Origin: a virus
Taxonomy: Duplodnaviria; Caudoviricetes
DNA: 31,245 bases
Reading direction: 5' to 3' (one strand)
IMG/VR virus record: IMGVR_UViG_3300037589_000202
Coordinates: 1-31,245 of that record
Notes under the pieces: model-generated
Told to the model about the DNA's origin: nothing
The model's database searches: none
Seen by the model: only the letters and a program-made list of their open reading frames with translations
In this document: one piece after another, positions 6,254 through 16,999 of the stretch
Position numbering within the stretch: position 1 is the first letter of the stretch
Layout of the letters: the number at the start of each line of letters is the position of its first letter
Program-made: the position numbers and the translations under genes

Positions 6254-6507
6254 CATTTACTGGGTACTATATCGAAATCAAGACGGTTCTAAAGCAACAC
6301 AACCTTTCCATCATTGATAGTGTTGCTTGGGACTTCTTCCAAAGGGGTTATTCTACTGATTTAGTAATTCGAGAGTTTCTTAAAATTCAAAATCATGACG
6401 ACCTACCCACTATAAAAGATTTCTTGGAGAACAGTTCAAATAAAAAAAACAGGATTCATTCATATAGTAACACTAGGATATGGCGGTCAGAAAATACACT
6501 AAAATAA
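6250..6507 (+). CDS. Hypothetical protein
   Basis: GTGA overlap with the upstream stop; 85 aa. Confidence 0.55.
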   Translation: MTFTGYYIEIKTVLKQHNLSIIDSVAWDFFQRGYSTDLVIREFLKIQNHDDLPTIKDFLENSSNKKNRIHSYSNTRIWRSENTLK

Positions 6508-7055
6508 CAGCTAAACAGGTCTCTTTTATTCTCAAAAACTTTGAGAAAATGAACAACAAAGATCTTGCTTCCTCATTAGGGTTAAAAGCATCTCAAGTAA
6601 GATCAGTATACAGAAGAAATGGACTAAAAAGAATTGCTGGAAACGGGAGATTTGAAAAGGGACATGTTCCAGCAAACAAAGGAGTAAAAATGAGTAAATC
6701 TCAATATGATGCTTGCAAAAAAACAATGTTCAAAAAGGGTTCGACTCCTGTAAACCACAAACCTGTAGGCTCTGAAAGAGTAGATAAAGATGGGTATACA
6801 GTTATAAAAACAAAAGAGCCTTCTACCTGGGAACTTAAACACAGAGTAGTTTGGCTAAAGCATAACCCTCCATTAAAAAACGGTGAGATTGTAACTTTTA
6901 AAAACGGTGACAAATCAGATATAAGCCTATCTAATTTACAGATAAAATGTAGAATCCAAAATATGCATGAGAATTCTAAGCACATAAACCCAAAAGAGAT
7001 CATACCGTCATTGGTCTACCTTACCAAAATTAAAAAGCATTTAAATAATCATTAA
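6480..7055 (+). CDS. HTH plus HNH_3-like protein (probably nuclease-dead)
   Basis: Repeated FxKGxxPxN motifs, DGYTVIK...WELKHRVVW, VTFKNGDKSDISLSNL. Confidence 0.75.
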   Translation: MAVRKYTKITAKQVSFILKNFEKMNNKDLASSLGLKASQVRSVYRRNGLKRIAGNGRFEKGHVPANKGVKMSKSQYDACKKTMFKKGSTPVNHKPVGSERVDKDGYTVIKTKEPSTWELKHRVVWLKHNPPLKNGEIVTFKNGDKSDISLSNLQIKCRIQNMHENSKHINPKEIIPSLVYLTKIKKHLNNH

Positions 7056-10656: not shown

Positions 10657-10965
10657 ATGTTAAAATCTAAAAAATCAAAAATAATTGCAGGCCTATTGGT
10701 CGCATTAGTTCTTATTATAGGAATTGGAGGCTCAATAAACACAAGAAAAACAAAATTCACCTTGGAGCAGTTCGAGTCAATTAGTACAGGAATGACCTAC
10801 CAAGACTGTAAAGAAATTTTTGGGGAGGGCGAACTATTAAGTGAAAGTGAAATAGCCGGAGCCTCTGCAAAAGTGTACATGTGGCAGAACAAACTTGGCT
10901 CAAATTTGAACATCACATTTCAGGATGGAAAGGTAGTGTCAAAAGCTCAAGCGGGTCTTAAATGA
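10657..10965 (+). CDS. Membrane-anchored DUF3862/BLIP-like (SmpA/OmlA-type fold) protein
   Basis: N-terminal TM helix, then TLEQFESISTGMTYQDCKEIFGEG...YMW...NITFQDGKVVSKAQAGL. Confidence 0.75.
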   Translation: MLKSKKSKIIAGLLVALVLIIGIGGSINTRKTKFTLEQFESISTGMTYQDCKEIFGEGELLSESEIAGASAKVYMWQNKLGSNLNITFQDGKVVSKAQAGLK

Positions 10966-11051
10966 AGTTCATAGAGTTTATAAAGAAAACTTGGCTTTAT
11001 GACCTGTATCTTATAGCTTTTCCAATAACAGACGAAGAAGAAAACCGATAG
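10962..11051 (+). CDS. Possible 29-aa peptide MKFIEFIKKTWLYDLYLIAFPITDEEENR
   Basis: ATG overlaps the upstream TGA (ATGA); fills the gap up to the terminator. Confidence 0.35.
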   Translation: MKFIEFIKKTWLYDLYLIAFPITDEEENR

Positions 11052-11072
11052 AAAAGACTATCGGTTTTTTTT
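11041..11072. terminator. Intrinsic terminator (probably bidirectional) between convergent operons
   Basis: AAAACCGATAG-AAAAGA-CTATCGGTTTT plus a T run; A-rich on the other side. Confidence 0.85.
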
Positions 11073-11551: not shown

Positions 11552-12097
11552 TTATTTTTTTGCGAGCTTTCGCTCTATTTTTTTTATAATCTTTTTTTTG
11601 AGCGCCTCACTCTTTCCTATGAACTGTCTTTGTGGTATGGTTGCAGAAGCTTTTCCAAACACTGTTGTTTTGCCACCTTCATTATGAATCGATGCGTAAG
11701 GCTTGTCTGTAAAAACTCTGATTTTGTTTCCTTTCTTTACGTATTGGATGCTGTTTTCTAGCTCACTTCTCTTGCTGCTCAATATAGGAGTGTTTCTTGC
11801 TGTGGGGCTGTAGTTTGTTATTGGATTGCTTTTTCTTGCCTTATAATTCCTTTTAGCTCCCTTTCTTTTTGGGTGGTTATTTGGAGTTCTTGACTTGGCT
11901 CCATATTCAAAACCTGACCAAACCGATGAGGAGTCTCTTCTCTTTACGTCTTCCCATTTCTTTCCATCAAAACCTTGTTTTTCGAAGTTCTCTGTAAAAT
12001 GATTCACAGCTTCTGTACCAATGATATCGAGCATTTCTATCTTCACAAACCTTCCTATTCTGTTCAATTCCTTGTTTATCTCGTTAAAATCAGCCAT
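11552..12097 (-). CDS. Virion morphogenesis protein (Mu gpG / P2 S-like)
   Basis: ENFEKQG...KKW; LENSI; PYASIHNEGG; IPQRQFIG. Confidence 0.88.
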   Translation of the reverse strand: MADFNEINKELNRIGRFVKIEMLDIIGTEAVNHFTENFEKQGFDGKKWEDVKRRDSSSVWSGFEYGAKSRTPNNHPKRKGAKRNYKARKSNPITNYSPTARNTPILSSKRSELENSIQYVKKGNKIRVFTDKPYASIHNEGGKTTVFGKASATIPQRQFIGKSEALKKKIIKKIERKLAKK

Positions 12098-12114
12098 TTT
12101 TTATTTATTTGTAC

Positions 12115-12122
12115 TATATTTG
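12115..12122 (+). promoter_or_regulatory. Consensus -7 box TATATTTG(C), antisense to the late head operon
   Basis: Exact TAnnTTTG match in the intergenic gap with an AT-rich upstream; no clear -33 TTG. Confidence 0.6.
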
Positions 12123-12126
12123 CAAC

Positions 12127-12193
12127 GGATTCAGCTCTTAGGGAGCAGAACCAACCTCTTTCGGGATTGAGCGGTAATTCAATCCCTTTTTTT
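12127..12193 (+). ncRNA. Candidate ~65-nt structured small RNA (possible MuF-toxin antitoxin)
   Basis: Bounded by the -7 box and an intrinsic terminator; 5' hairpin GGATTCAGCTC-TTAGG-GAGCAGAACC; no ATG-initiated ORF. Confidence 0.5.
12163..12193 (+). terminator. Intrinsic terminator on the + strand, overlapping the MuF stop codon
   Basis: GGGATTGA-GCGGTAAT-TCAATCCC followed by T7; U-tract only in the + direction. Confidence 0.75.
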
Positions 12194-13372
12194 ATACTCT
12201 GCAATTTCAGAACCTTTTATTATAAATATTCTTTCAAAAGGATTCTTACCACTTTTTTTAATCTTTCCATTCAACTGTTCTTGTATTCTTTGAATTGAAA
12301 CTTCGGTATCAATTCTAAAAACTACAACTTTGCAATGCTGCTTGTTTTTTGCAGAATTATATCCATTATAACAAGAGTTTCCTTCAATTTTCTTTAGATC
12401 GCCTACCCGGCCATTTATTAAATATTCAGGATTTCTCCTTCCTGTATCTCCAAAACCTGTCTCAACATTTTCTGCGTGAGGTCTTATTTTTATCTCTACA
12501 TCGTCAAAATTATCAGCAATGAGTTTTGCTGCTTCAAAATTTTCTTGCAATGAATTTTGTTTGTTTGTCTTTTTGGTTTTATTCTGGTCTGCAAACGTAT
12601 GCACACTAATGCTGCTAGAACCTTTTTTGTAATCAACTCCAGGGTATGGTAAGTTTAAACTAAGCCTGTTCATTTCTCTCAAAGCAGTTTTTTTACCTTC
12701 CACACTCAAATTAGCTTCATAAGAGTTGTTGCTACCAAACAATCTTTCGCTCTTCCCAGCGTTGCCAATAATTCCATCTGGAAGCGGAGTTGTTTCTACT
12801 TCTCCTGAAGTAGGAACTTCGTCACTCTTTCGGACACGGCATTTACAGTTCCATCCATTTGGAGGCAAATGAGTGTCCCAAAAAGGATCGTTCATTGGTT
12901 TTATAATTCCATAGAACTGTTTATGTTCTGCTCTTTGTTCCGCACTTCGGCTTGGCAGGTATTCCAAGTTTGGGTAATCGGCCTGGCTCTGTTTAAAAGA
13001 GTTCCATTGCTTGGCACTTCTTGCTGTTCTGCTCGCAAAGTTGGATTCAGTTGCCAAGTGCCTTTCGTACAATGCTATTATCGCACTACGTTCTTCTTCG
13101 GTTTTTCCTTTTAGGTTTGCAGTATACTGGGCAGTTCTATATGCCGAAAACTTGGCAGCATCTTTTCGCAACTTATTTACTAGATTCCAATCCTTATCTC
13201 CGTATTTTGTCTTGTCAAATACCTGGTCTACCTTCTTGGTGATTGAGTTAAGCGAGTGGTTAAATAATTTACTACTAAGCTCGGTGTCTTCTAAAGAATC
13301 TATTTCGTCATATACTTTTTTAGGATCTTTAATATTGTTGGCCGATAGTCCAACAAAGTTACTCCATCTCAA
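12179..13372 (-). CDS. MuF (gpF/SPP1 gp7-like) minor head protein with C-terminal CdiA-like PD-(D/E)xK nuclease domain; frame open upstream to the portal slippery site
   Basis: MuF motif YPNLEY...RAEH...DPFWDTHLPPNGWNCKCRV; C-terminal NPEYLINGRVGDLK...AKNKQHCKVVVF; only a TTG start. Confidence 0.85.
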   Translation of the reverse strand: MRWSNFVGLSANNIKDPKKVYDEIDSLEDTELSSKLFNHSLNSITKKVDQVFDKTKYGDKDWNLVNKLRKDAAKFSAYRTAQYTANLKGKTEEERSAIIALYERHLATESNFASRTARSAKQWNSFKQSQADYPNLEYLPSRSAEQRAEHKQFYGIIKPMNDPFWDTHLPPNGWNCKCRVRKSDEVPTSGEVETTPLPDGIIGNAGKSERLFGSNNSYEANLSVEGKKTALREMNRLSLNLPYPGVDYKKGSSSISVHTFADQNKTKKTNKQNSLQENFEAAKLIADNFDDVEIKIRPHAENVETGFGDTGRRNPEYLINGRVGDLKKIEGNSCYNGYNSAKNKQHCKVVVFRIDTEVSIQRIQEQLNGKIKKSGKNPFERIFIIKGSEIAEYKKRD

Positions 13373-13436: not shown

Positions 13437-13468
13437 GCCCCGAGATTTTCGGGGCGAGTTAAAAAAAA
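13437..13468 (-). other. Putative -1 programmed ribosomal frameshift signal (portal to MuF)
   Basis: T TTT TTT (13468-13462), spacer TAACTC, hairpin GCCCCGA-AAATC-TCGGGGC (13455-13437); -1 frame has no stop and is the MuF frame. Confidence 0.75.
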
Positions 13469-14622
13469 CCTTTACCAGCTTTAAGGTTTTGTGACGTATC
13501 TTGTGTCTCTTTTTTGGCAACAGGAATGCCAAAAGTATTTGTGATATATTCTTCTTCAATATAATAATGAGGTAACAATCCTTGAGTGATTGTCCAGAGC
13601 TGATTTACATCCACCGCCTCTTCAAATCTAAATTCATACCCCTGAAATGGATAACCCAGAGTTATTAATCTTGGAATTAAAACGGTGTTTAAATACCCTT
13701 CGATCCATTGTTTGTCACTTTTTGTTACTTTCACTCCTGTTCGCTCACCTACTTCTTCTTTGCTTCTGCTTCCACCAGAGCTTGAATCTCCTATTACGGC
13801 TCCGTTTATGATAAAGCTGACCTCTTGGTTACAAAGATTAATGAGATTGCTGTATACTTCGCCATTGCTTTTGGCGGATTCTACAAAGTTCAATTCTTCT
13901 TCATTGTCGACAACCGCATAAGAAGCAACGCCCATATTGATCATCATGTTTTCCATTCGATTAAGGCTCTCTTCGTCTTTCACGTTAGTTTTACCATATC
14001 TCAATGGCATGCCAAATATTTCGCAAAACTCGGACCAGGCGCTTTGAGCAAACCTTTTGTATAAAATGTGGGGTGCGGCCTTATTCAGAAGACCTAAATC
14101 TTTTTTCTCGCCCACTTCGAGCAACCAGGTGCTGTATTGCTTGTTTTCTCTGTAATAGATTCCTTTCTCGTCTCCTTGTCGCACGGTAAACATTCCCGTT
14201 TCTGGGACAACATGTTTGCGGTTCACTAGCATTATCTCGCTTATTTCTCCGTTTTCGTCTAGGTCTCCTATTTGTATAAGGGAGTGTCCTAAGAGCTTGG
14301 AGTCCATTGCATGCCCCAGGAACTCGAAGAACCAGGGTTTCTGAAGTAGCTTCGTCTTTTCGTTGTCAGCAATTCCATCTTGCGGGTTATAAATTGAAAA
14401 TTCGCTGCCCTGTACAGCCAGCTTGCGTTTGTCAAATTCAGCTGACAGCCGTGCGTCCAAAACTAGCTCATCGTACAAGTTGTAGAGCAACGTTCTTTTT
14501 GGTTGTTCTGGTTTCTCGGCCTGTTGCAAAGCGCTTCTCCACTGTTTTATATCCTTTCTGCTCCTCGCTGTGCTGGAAGCAATAATCTTGTCTAATATTT
14601 TATTTGGTCTTTTACCTGCCAT
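13459..14622 (-). CDS. Portal protein (Mu gp29/DUF935 family)
   Basis: WSEFCEIFGMPLRYGKT; CNQEVSFIING; GGSRSKEEVGE; between gp36-like and MuF. Confidence 0.9.
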   Translation of the reverse strand: MAGKRPNKILDKIIASSTARSRKDIKQWRSALQQAEKPEQPKRTLLYNLYDELVLDARLSAEFDKRKLAVQGSEFSIYNPQDGIADNEKTKLLQKPWFFEFLGHAMDSKLLGHSLIQIGDLDENGEISEIMLVNRKHVVPETGMFTVRQGDEKGIYYRENKQYSTWLLEVGEKKDLGLLNKAAPHILYKRFAQSAWSEFCEIFGMPLRYGKTNVKDEESLNRMENMMINMGVASYAVVDNEEELNFVESAKSNGEVYSNLINLCNQEVSFIINGAVIGDSSSGGSRSKEEVGERTGVKVTKSDKQWIEGYLNTVLIPRLITLGYPFQGYEFRFEEAVDVNQLWTITQGLLPHYYIEEEYITNTFGIPVAKKETQDTSQNLKAGKGFF

Positions 14623-14632
14623 TTTTTAGTAT

Positions 14633-15040
14633 TTAATAATAGTGATCTGTTTTTTGTATGCTACTTCCGTATCTAAGAGGTAATTGCTTGCCGTTCTCTT
14701 TCTTTGGCAATATGGGGTTAGTAAATCCATCCGCGATTTTTTCAAGCTCATTCATGACTTTGTTATAGCGGTCAACTCGCAATTGAGGAATGTTGTCAGG
14801 AGATACTTTTGCGTGCAGGTGATAGATCATAATGTCTCTCACAAATCCCAAAATCAAAACACTTTTGGTGGTTGCTGTAAGAATTGCGTTCATATCATAC
14901 CTAACATTTAAATATCCTGTTATTTCAGAAATCGCATCATTTTCCACTGAGTTCAAATTTAGGTCGTTTCCTTCAGTAATAACGCTCAAGGTTTCGTTAT
15001 CAATCATTTGTCGGATATAGTCTTTCGTAATAAAATTCAT
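14633..15040 (-). CDS. Head-tail adaptor (Mu gp36/DUF1320-like)
   Basis: AISEITGYLNVRYD; DIMIYHL; RYNKVMNELEKIADG. Confidence 0.88.
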   Translation of the reverse strand: MNFITKDYIRQMIDNETLSVITEGNDLNLNSVENDAISEITGYLNVRYDMNAILTATTKSVLILGFVRDIMIYHLHAKVSPDNIPQLRVDRYNKVMNELEKIADGFTNPILPKKENGKQLPLRYGSSIQKTDHYY

Positions 15041-15043
15041 AGT

Positions 15044-16555
15044 TTAATATTTTCGGCTTTCTCTTAAGCCTATTCTGTATGTGTGTTGTGAGCTTCTTGT
15101 AAATCTATCTAAATAGTCGAACGCTTCTTTGTCTGCATCTGGTGAATCATCAGGCCCCTTATAACCCGGCTCTAATCCTTTTAGCTGCGCAATCCCTTCT
15201 TTGGTGTCGTTGTGATTCTTCAGCTTCTGGCTATAGTAAATTCTTCCATTTTGGTACTGCGGAAGCATTTCCAACATTCGGTCATACTTCTTTTTGCGTG
15301 ACCTCTCGCTTTTTACAAGATTGAGCTTTATATCAAACTTTTTCTCAGTCTCATTTATCACTCTGTATATTTCATCGTTCCAGAACTGAGCCTCGAACCT
15401 AAAAGGAACACTAACGCTTGCTGGAAGATTCTTTTGGTAATCTGCAATCCATTCCAGGGCAACTCTTATTTTGCACCTTTTGACCAAACAGTCTAGCTGT
15501 ATTTTTCTGCCATCTTTGGTAAGCCCCCATACTTTTATAGCGTTAAAGTCACTTGTTTTAGATCCTGCATAAGCAACGTCCCATGTCCCAACTATTGCGA
15601 CAAAAGAGTCTAATCTTGGTGATTTGTCCCACTGAATCATTTCGTCAGTAAACACCTTACCTTCTACATGCGGGTCGTTATTGTATTCCGCATTAGCCTC
15701 TAGGCTTCCCATTATCTCAATTCTTTTGTGATAATAGTCTTTATCGTATTTTTCCTTCCATACCGGTTCTAAGGTTTCTGGATCAAAAGCGTTTTGACTT
15801 TGAACCTTCCATCCTTTGTTGTTGTCAACAATTAAATTAAAAATCATTTCTGGGGCAAATCCATTTTGAGCTAAAACAACTCTTTGTCGGGCTCCGTCCA
15901 TTGTTGGGATTACTCCTGACAAGAGCCATTTTGCATATTCTCGTTGTCTTTTTTGGTTTTTGATGGTCTCCTTTGTTTCCCAATCATCGCAAGCGATATA
16001 ATCTGGCCTACTGCCTCCAACTCTCAATCCTCTCGGGTCTTGTCCCATTCCCATAGATTTGGCAATAAACCCATTTTTGGTAATAAAAAATCCGTTTTCC
16101 CAGTGTCCGCTATTACGTTGGTCTCCAAAATCATGGATTAACCTGTCGTTGCCTTCAAATTGCAATTTCAAATCATCCAAGAGGATAGATGCTTTGTCTT
16201 CGTTTTGGCCAATTAACAACATGAACTCAATGTCATTGTTGATCCAAAGCCACAAAGGTATCGTAACATCCGCCACAACAGATTTAGCTAAACCACGACC
16301 CCACTTCAGCCAAATAGCAAGCTCCTTGTTCTTTTTTATCCTTTTGGCTGCTTTTGTGTGAAATGCAGGCGTCTTGGTGGTAGCAAAGTTTGGAAGGTAG
16401 TGACTGACGAAGAACTCATAATCTAAACGAGCCTTGTCAATTCTAGCCTGTTTGTCGCTTTTACTTTCATTAAAATTGACAACGGTTTGAGACCTCAAAA
16501 GCTTAACCCTTTGAGCCCATTCCTTTTTGGCGTTTCTATCTTTTACTGTTGCCAT
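15044..16555 (-). CDS. terL: Terminase large subunit
   Basis: Walker A-like WGRGLAKS, RGLRVGGSRPDYIACDD, RNase H-like WDVA...SDF, C-terminal DDSPDA. Confidence 0.92.
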   Translation of the reverse strand: MATVKDRNAKKEWAQRVKLLRSQTVVNFNESKSDKQARIDKARLDYEFFVSHYLPNFATTKTPAFHTKAAKRIKKNKELAIWLKWGRGLAKSVVADVTIPLWLWINNDIEFMLLIGQNEDKASILLDDLKLQFEGNDRLIHDFGDQRNSGHWENGFFITKNGFIAKSMGMGQDPRGLRVGGSRPDYIACDDWETKETIKNQKRQREYAKWLLSGVIPTMDGARQRVVLAQNGFAPEMIFNLIVDNNKGWKVQSQNAFDPETLEPVWKEKYDKDYYHKRIEIMGSLEANAEYNNDPHVEGKVFTDEMIQWDKSPRLDSFVAIVGTWDVAYAGSKTSDFNAIKVWGLTKDGRKIQLDCLVKRCKIRVALEWIADYQKNLPASVSVPFRFEAQFWNDEIYRVINETEKKFDIKLNLVKSERSRKKKYDRMLEMLPQYQNGRIYYSQKLKNHNDTKEGIAQLKGLEPGYKGPDDSPDADKEAFDYLDRFTRSSQHTYRIGLRESRKY

Positions 16556-16558
16556 AAT

Positions 16559-16999
16559 TTACACGTCTTTCTCGTTTGCTAAGTGATTAATAAATTCATC
16601 TGACAGCTCTAATAGGTCCATCATTGCGCTACCGTGGTTCTGTTGCACGTAGTCCATAAATTCAGTAAACACTTCGACATACACGTGCAAAGGGTTATTA
16701 GATAAAGCCTCTATCTCTTTTCTAATTGTTGATTTAGCATCACTGAGAGCCTTGTTTGGTACTCCGTTGTGATTCTCTACAATTTCCTCATTTATTGCTT
16801 TAAGCTGGGCGTATGAATCTTTTAACAAACTAGCCCTGGTGATGCTTTGTGTTTCCTTTTCTACATCCCATCCATATTTGGTTATCCATGCCGATAATGT
16901 TTTAGCAGTGCATGGAACTTTTTCTGCAATTTCCTTCCTGTTGAAGTTGGACTTCAAGTAGTAGCTTTTGGCTTTTTTTTGGCGTGCTGTATAATTCAT
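16559..16999 (-). CDS. terS: Terminase small subunit (HTH, DUF1804-like)
   Basis: RKEIAEKVPCTAKTLSAWITKYGW HTH, directly upstream of terL. Confidence 0.8.
   Translation of the reverse strand: MNYTARQKKAKSYYLKSNFNRKEIAEKVPCTAKTLSAWITKYGWDVEKETQSITRASLLKDSYAQLKAINEEIVENHNGVPNKALSDAKSTIRKEIEALSNNPLHVYVEVFTEFMDYVQQNHGSAMMDLLELSDEFINHLANEKDV

Follow-up and report, generated by a model that had tools for sequence, protein, structure and literature searches.

A conserved backward RNA unit behind RNase-type MuF toxins of Bacteroidota phages, most likely an RNA immunity factor

The MuF toxins of temperate phages have been described together with protein immunity (PMC5576092; PMC11699363). In these polymorphic toxin-immunity systems, including Bxa/Bsi/BAH of Bacteroides stercoris (PMC11699363), a MuF protein with a variable C-terminal toxin domain is encoded in the packaging module and a dedicated partner lies directly after the toxin gene. 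The locus described here shares these traits. However, the slot behind its toxin gene is non-coding and occupied on the opposite strand, and the accessible text of those accounts describes no RNA partner. The closest characterised relative of the toxin domain itself is CdiA-CT of B. pseudomallei 1026b (PDB 4G6V), a PD-(D/E)xK tRNase that cuts the acceptor stem of tRNA-Ala and whose active site the protein CdiI blocks, according to the accessible text of PMC9086364. Fold and PD-(D/E)xK motif (PF18451) are common to both, but the domain described here is only 18% identical, has a predicted target, is fused to a phage head protein instead of a two-partner secretion carrier, and is not followed by a CdiI-like gene.

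RNA partners are known from other toxin-antitoxin systems. As outlined in the accessible part of PMC5086642, classical type III systems (ToxIN, CptIN, TenpIN) combine a same-strand array of short repeats, which the toxin processes, and a pseudoknotted antitoxin with a ToxN-type toxin. As at our locus, where the RNA is a predicted inhibitor, an RNase-type toxin is thus accompanied by a dedicated small non-coding RNA. In contrast to the same-strand bicistron with the RNA upstream, the RNA found here lies downstream on the opposite strand, it is a single 67-nt unit without a repeat array in its sequence, and its toxin is part of a structural protein that matches CdiA_C only (Pfam, Foldseek) and not ToxN, CptN or TenpN. 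Because repeat array, layout and toxin family all differ, we do not file the unit as classical type III. By analogy, it would nevertheless work like a type III antitoxin, as AbiF/RCd22 from a Clostridioides difficile prophage does. RCd22 is reported to neutralise AbiF by direct RNA-protein contact, in cis as well as in trans (bioRxiv 10.1101/2025.04.15.648962, accessible text). Together with AvcID (PMC10511110, likewise in part), this system resembles ours in its non-classical RNA antitoxin, which at our locus is a predicted one, but both involve other toxin families (Abi_2/AbiD/F and cytidine deaminase) that act as stand-alone defence toxins, and neither has an Rfam or motif match to the present unit. 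Type I systems, finally, share the antisense RNA on the opposite strand, which here overlaps 15 nt of the ORF and also the intergenic mRNA. Type I RNAs block translation of the toxin mRNA or destabilise it. Their toxin is typically a small hydrophobic peptide (PMC6563280, accessible text), whereas the toxin in question is a 397-residue head protein with a nuclease fold.

In the accessible literature, polymorphic toxins are neutralised by proteins, while RNA antitoxins belong to stand-alone defence modules. The literature searched, with subscription papers lying mostly outside the search, held no report of an RNA partner for MuF, CdiA_C, LPD3 or PBECR domains. Likewise, the accessible text of the PBECR, LPD3 and BECR surveys mentions none (PMC5512222; bioRxiv 10.64898/2026.08.28.747851), nor does the main text of a 2026 survey of non-coding elements mention such an RNA (10.64898/2026.10.21.760802), although its supplements might list them. 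RNA immunity for a phage head toxin is therefore of a kind not found in the literature searched and apparently undescribed.

The window, i.e. the whole stretch of DNA that was analysed, comprises the 31,245 nt of IMG/VR virus record IMGVR_UViG_3300037589_000202. Gene order and Pfam matches identified it as a Mu-like phage with its head module on the minus strand, in the order small-terminase-like gene, large ORF, gp36-like gene, portal, MuF and Phage_tail_S/gpG. The terminase-sized large ORF had no Pfam match. The placement in a head and packaging module that is expected for a temperate phage was evident from the portal, gp36-like and tail_S neighbours, together with weak transposase and repressor-like Pfam matches. 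The relevant features are the following:

11552..12097, minus strand: Phage_tail_S (gpG-like) virion morphogenesis gene, next in the late operon (Pfam)
12115..12122, plus strand: TATATTTG as -7 box, the small RNA's predicted promoter; Bacteroidota housekeeping-sigma consensus, present in 47/50 clusters
12127..12193, plus strand: predicted 67-nt small RNA, candidate antitoxin; without ATG or GTG, one TTG in the terminator
12127..12152, plus strand: hairpin 1, predicted toxin-binding element, fully outside coding sequence
12163..12193, plus-strand polarity: intrinsic terminator, covering the stop of the toxin gene and the four codons before it (sequence, terminator listing)
12179..13372, minus strand: MuF head protein with C-terminal CdiA_C domain (Pfam, model, Foldseek)
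13459..16999, minus strand: portal, gp36-like gene, terminase-sized large ORF and small-terminase-like gene of the Mu-like head module

The MuF protein matched PF04233 (MuF) at residues 106-180 and PF18451 (CdiA_C, PD-(D/E)xK) at residues 313-387, both above the Pfam cut-off. The PD-(D/E)xK motif is present, with E316, D325 and K327 as the predicted catalytic residues. A structure model of the last 173 residues reached a pLDDT of 85, and with this model Foldseek returned 4g6v_A as the single match at E<=0.001. The domain is predicted to be a tRNA-cutting RNase. A word-index protein search returned only the window's own protein, a PDB sequence search gave no return, and searches of annotated phage and plasmid records returned 1, 0 and 0 records.

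A preliminary description of this DNA had claimed that only 81 nt separate the MuF stop from the next structural gene, leaving no room for an immunity protein. Indeed, the gap between the stop (12179-12181, minus strand) and the gpG start (12097) spans 12098-12178 and contains no start codon except one TTG in the terminator, so that a small immunity protein gene directly after the window toxin is absent. The elements it had placed on the opposite strand were also recovered: the -7 box at 12115 is TATATTTG on the plus strand (12115-12122), and the 5′ hairpin at 12127-12152 is present on the same strand with the loop TTAGG. The terminator, said to work in the plus direction only and to overlap the last toxin codons, consists of a stem (12163-12186) and a T7 run (12187-12193), is listed on the plus strand only, and shares 15 nt with the toxin ORF. 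Two Pfam scans of window ORFs (22 ORFs in one, 29 in the other) gave no match to an immunity family. As many of these ORFs have no family at all, a distant protein immunity gene may exist in the phage.

The accessible literature gives the -7 element of the Bacteroidota housekeeping sigma factor as a TAnnTTTG-type box (PMC7366714, PMC9723704) at -12 to -5 relative to +1 (PMC9723704). We therefore predict that transcription would start at G12127, the first base of hairpin 1. A -33 TTTG element was not evident upstream of the 12115 box. The TAnnTTTG box alone occurs at chance level in the window (40 matches versus 41 expected), and it is the position and recurrence of the 12115 box, found in 47/50 related toxin clusters versus 112/1396 background windows, that lift it above chance. 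The only other intergenic plus-strand copy of TATATTTG near a gene start, at 756-763, is likely an early promoter. Within MuF, a TAnnTTTG box at 12592-12599 (minus strand) was considered and set aside as probably a codon accident, since a same-strand internal box was found in only 2/47 relatives; it is directly followed, upstream of the nuclease motif, by a 9-residue insertion peculiar to the window toxin.

The 67-nt unit folded at -22.1 kcal/mol (z -2.9), and 2/200 shuffled sequences folded equally well. Its predicted folds were two plain hairpins, as obtained with a program that cannot predict pseudoknots. In hairpin 1, an A-A mismatch separates two stems, which show covariation among the toxin's four closest relatives. 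Rfam 15 gave no match at gathering score in the window, only sub-threshold chance matches, and none over the unit in 20 related loci; ARAGORN called no tRNA in the window.

To place the unit among its relatives, we collected loci from viral, metagenome and genome collections (designated by L numbers), most of which were found through toxin patterns. In 230 MuF genes the frame was closed and the DNA downstream was long enough, and these formed 96 clusters at 70% identity. The C-terminal extensions are exchanged among these relatives and comprised CdiA_C, LPD3, PBECR2, LPD1, GNAT-like and unassigned types as well as short forms. A box on the opposite strand, 30-135 nt past the stop, was present in 47/51 CdiA_C-like clusters, 18/27 clusters with other extensions and 2/18 clusters of short MuF; on the same strand it followed the stop in 1/51 CdiA_C-like clusters. 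When the split ORF of L187 and the 7/18 short clusters without an adjoining gpG were left out, the comparison stood at 47/50 CdiA_C-like clusters versus 2/11 clusters of short MuF followed by gpG (Fisher p 6e-7), with one doubtful box among the 47 (L152) and the two short MuF counted as positive on the box alone. Opposite-strand boxes were found at a background rate of 112/1396 windows. The gap between short MuF and gpG was <=8 nt in 9/11 cases.

Because most loci had come from toxin patterns, we drew a second sample with the Pfam model of MuF itself from 301 genomes, which gave 18 matches, 16 of them parsed (all but L296 and L304). Among the RNase-like extensions the exact box was present in 8/11 (7/10 without the seed genome), a one-letter variant in two and none in one, while none of the four short MuF had a box. 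This second sample agrees with the 47/50 versus 2/11 of the first, and the co-occurrence with toxin-bearing but not toxin-less MuF, which the preliminary description had named as a way to check its proposal, was thus borne out. The backward unit behind RNase-type MuF toxins is a widespread pattern in Bacteroidota phages, with dozens of relatives.

The 65 units had a median length of 77 nt and a median overlap of 17 nt with the toxin end. They showed a polarity: a terminator pattern was present on the antisense strand of 47 units versus 10 with one on the other strand, and the antisense strand folded better in 57/65. The z value was below -2 in 58/65 units, to which the terminator contributes, and the RNA was almost wholly paired in the predicted folds. 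The predicted +1 was a purine in 54/64 units, and a closed ORF of at least 15 codons fits inside only 5/65. Four RNA-seq contig sets from one study were compared with a gut-phage relative (L004). They covered it at a depth of 2-7, scattered and mostly in 151-nt pieces. The unit was covered in 4/4 runs, but its depth did not differ from background and the pieces exceeded the RNA in length. In three loci (L123, L151, L023) the unit was longer (95-135 nt) and had an additional hairpin 5′ of its conserved part. Six others (L165, L181, L191, L209, L236, L250) had early-ending or split toxin frames and no box at the usual distance, and several of them look like decayed prophage copies. L305 had no box just past the toxin stop; we take its downstream DNA to resemble the end of an IS30-type transposase, and it looks as if an insertion had displaced the unit. 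At L025:3014-3161 and L089:2475-2616, RT-3 RNA (RF03068) was present downstream of the toxin gene, a few hundred bases away.

Since MAFFT left the five closest hairpins out of register, a motif search was used and no covariance model. A helix-[GC/AA]-short helix-loop motif was found in 26/46 CdiA_C units (L152 left out), versus a shuffle mean of 2.8 (maximum 8). It was absent from all reverse complements and present in 1/18 units beside other toxins. The pairs flanking it changed on both sides in 35/138 cells, a count that is partly circular as rows were picked for pairing. The GC/AA motif is absent from the window RNA. The clade of the window toxin (support 100/97; window, L001, L083, L085 and L237) has a variant instead, in which 5/5 RNAs start with a stem that a purine-A mismatch separates from an inner stem, and the letters of the inner stem differ while its pairing stays. 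This variant was defined after looking and is loose, occurring about 0.2 times per shuffled sequence and in 12/59 other units. A TC/YT loop class was tried and rejected, being no commoner (8/46) than in shuffles (9.6).

Furthermore, the RNA is co-inherited with the toxin domain and not with the flanking genes. When scored on the non-coding, pre-terminator part of the RNA (L152 and L038 left out), RNA likeness followed the toxin domain with a partial rho of 0.25 (Mantel, p 0.001, n=45 clusters), a modest effect among relatives that share traits. The corresponding values were -0.04 for the MuF domain and -0.03 for gpG (n=31), although gpG is equally close.

Natural losses provided additional evidence. 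L020 and L050, the only CdiA_C-like clusters with neither gap nor unit, have both lost catalytic motif residues; they belong to separate clades beside RNA-bearing relatives, and both lie on long branches. By comparison, the unit was kept with 45/45 intact catalytic domains (p 0.005; L187 and L038 left out of tree and catalytic table, and L100, with a variant box and the motif present, counted by hand as unit-bearing). L001 and L023 have an altered catalytic position yet kept the unit. Taken together, the unit is real, conserved, apparently undescribed and linked, in Bacteroidota phages, to those RNase-type MuF toxins that are predicted to be active.

Behind a non-RNase-like extension (L031-type), the same box in the same slot precedes a conserved gene for a 76-78-residue protein that ends at the toxin stop, as seen in the 6/6 loci examined of 9 fetched. 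A GNAT-like extension, assigned by a weak Pfam match, has a 64-residue ORF in the backward slot, and the PBECR2 locus L065 has an ambiguous 42-codon ORF there. In addition, two CdiA_C proteins without a MuF match, at another type of locus, are overlapped by small same-strand ORFs with 30% mutual identity and no box. These small ORFs are:

L031:2481-2708 and L306-L314; L270:2247-2438; L065:2429-2554, backward: small ORFs with the same box in the slot, no Pfam family
L286:1212-1454, L287:1218-1475, same strand: small ORFs overlapping the CdiA_C ends, candidate new immunity family

From their position, the small proteins in the slot and on the same strand would be immunity factors. The backward ORF of the L031 type has a conserved CxxC-H motif, and a complex prediction of its 76-residue product with the L031-type extension scored 0.56 versus 0.51 for the control. 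The position behind the toxin gene thus resembles a slot for immunity factors that has a host promoter of its own and takes up either an RNA or a protein.

Judged from its sequence context, the unit is most likely an RNA immunity factor. The 67-nt RNA probably binds the predicted tRNA-cutting MuF domain and blocks it, replacing the usual immunity protein. Made from a promoter of the host housekeeping sigma factor, it would be independent of the late operon and present both in the lysogen and during lytic growth, and its backward orientation would serve this independent expression rather than base-pairing. The RNA-binding cleft of this PD-(D/E)xK domain would be the docking site for hairpin 1 and its conserved mismatch. 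With the toxin blocked, MuF could be made for head assembly in the producing cell, and lysogens would be shielded from MuF brought in with the virions of a sibling phage, while cells lacking the RNA would be vulnerable. This reading is limited by the fact that the domain is 18% identical to the characterised tRNase, and by the full complementarity of the RNA to the late mRNA.

The latter point leads to the main rival reading, a type I-like cis-antisense regulator at the MuF/gpG junction, which we consider unlikely. Either by pairing with the late mRNA or through a collision of its transcription with it, such an RNA would lower leaky toxin synthesis in the lysogen. The convergent layout, the full complementarity to the intergenic mRNA and the median 17-nt overlap with the toxin end are what such a regulator would show, and both the joint loss with catalysis and the co-occurrence with the toxin would fit it equally. 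However, we favour binding because the hairpin motif is specific to strand and toxin, whereas an RNA that pairs with its own mRNA should have no need of an internal-loop motif that is conserved, confined to one strand and linked to the toxin subfamily. Moreover, only the terminator overlaps coding sequence, and the RNA is almost wholly paired with itself. Silencing of the mRNA would also not protect during lytic growth, because MuF must be translated for head assembly, and the slot can carry a protein gene instead.

Motif conservation, co-inheritance and joint loss with catalysis speak for a partnership but not for its sign. The RNA might thus bind the nuclease as a cofactor, scaffold or packaging tag. 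A ribonucleoprotein would then be the active or packaged form, and the RNA would be no inhibitor. We regard this as quite improbable, as the RNAs showed no variable segment resembling a guide, the Pfam scans revealed no other factor that would shield the producer, and the related CDI tRNase is active with no RNA of this kind and has its active site blocked by CdiI (PMC9086364, accessible text). Even less credible is an empty slot for accessory genes, consisting of promoter and terminator, or a terminator for plus-strand read-through, with a hairpin that by itself does nothing. Taken alone, the box is frequent, the slot can hold ORFs and the RNA sequences vary widely from one toxin type to another, all of which would suit an empty slot. 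Nevertheless, short MuF phages mostly lack the gap, hairpin 1 covaries, and a hairpin with a T-run (11041-11072) already sits between the early genes and the unit.

If the RNA is indeed an inhibitor, toxin-specific RNA inhibitors would join polymorphic toxins with RNA antitoxins, and MuF toxins without an immunity gene would be explained. There would be many natural RNA inhibitors of tRNases, and LPD3 would gain a testable function. The role of the MuF toxin itself becomes testable, since losing 26 non-coding bases should unmask the toxin with all proteins untouched.

The preliminary description had proposed that the RNA acts either as a bound decoy or substrate mimic, or by antisense action. 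Our data favour a bound RNA, while the idea of a substrate mimic was not supported in detail for the CdiA_C class. No anticodon-type 7-nt loop was found in the 47 CdiA_C units, and a CCA end was not enriched in the linker (8/40 versus 5.5 expected). Mimicry of a Leu anticodon by the TTAGG loop of the window RNA was discarded, as this loop is shared by L001 only, while the loops of the remaining three closest relatives measure 13-14 nt. Beside other extensions, anticodon-type 7-nt loops were present in 2/5 LPD3 units and 3/13 others, with 0.14 and 0.29, respectively, in shuffles:

L061, L064 (LPD3); L051, L072, L078, opposite strand, just past the MuF stop: units with an anticodon-type loop

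By codon rules, the loop of L061 would presumably correspond to Tyr and that of L064 to Arg; L048 has a loop that appears Cys-like by eye. This suggests that LPD3 and its related extensions act as anticodon nucleases, with their RNAs as decoys. More broadly, we regard as evenly balanced the proposal that unrelated RNase folds (CdiA_C, LPD3, PBECR2) are swapped onto MuF, each with a cognate 55-130-nt RNA inhibitor, some of which would copy tRNA anticodon arms, that non-RNase toxins have a protein in the same slot, and that lysogens and producers would thereby gain kin-specific immunity.

Some further observations concern single genes and loci. In the window, an HNH endonuclease gene (6480-7055, plus strand) lies within the early genes. 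A DUF3862 gene with a hydrophobic N-terminus (10657-10965, plus strand), possibly an exclusion or accessory gene, lies at their end and is followed by the hairpin with a T-run at 11041-11072, ahead of the antisense unit. At L053, where the MuF extension has no Pfam family, a unit of ~100 nt on the opposite strand, about 90 nt past the MuF stop, has a multi-branched, tRNA-like fold with a hairpin that we take, from its motif, to be T-arm-like.
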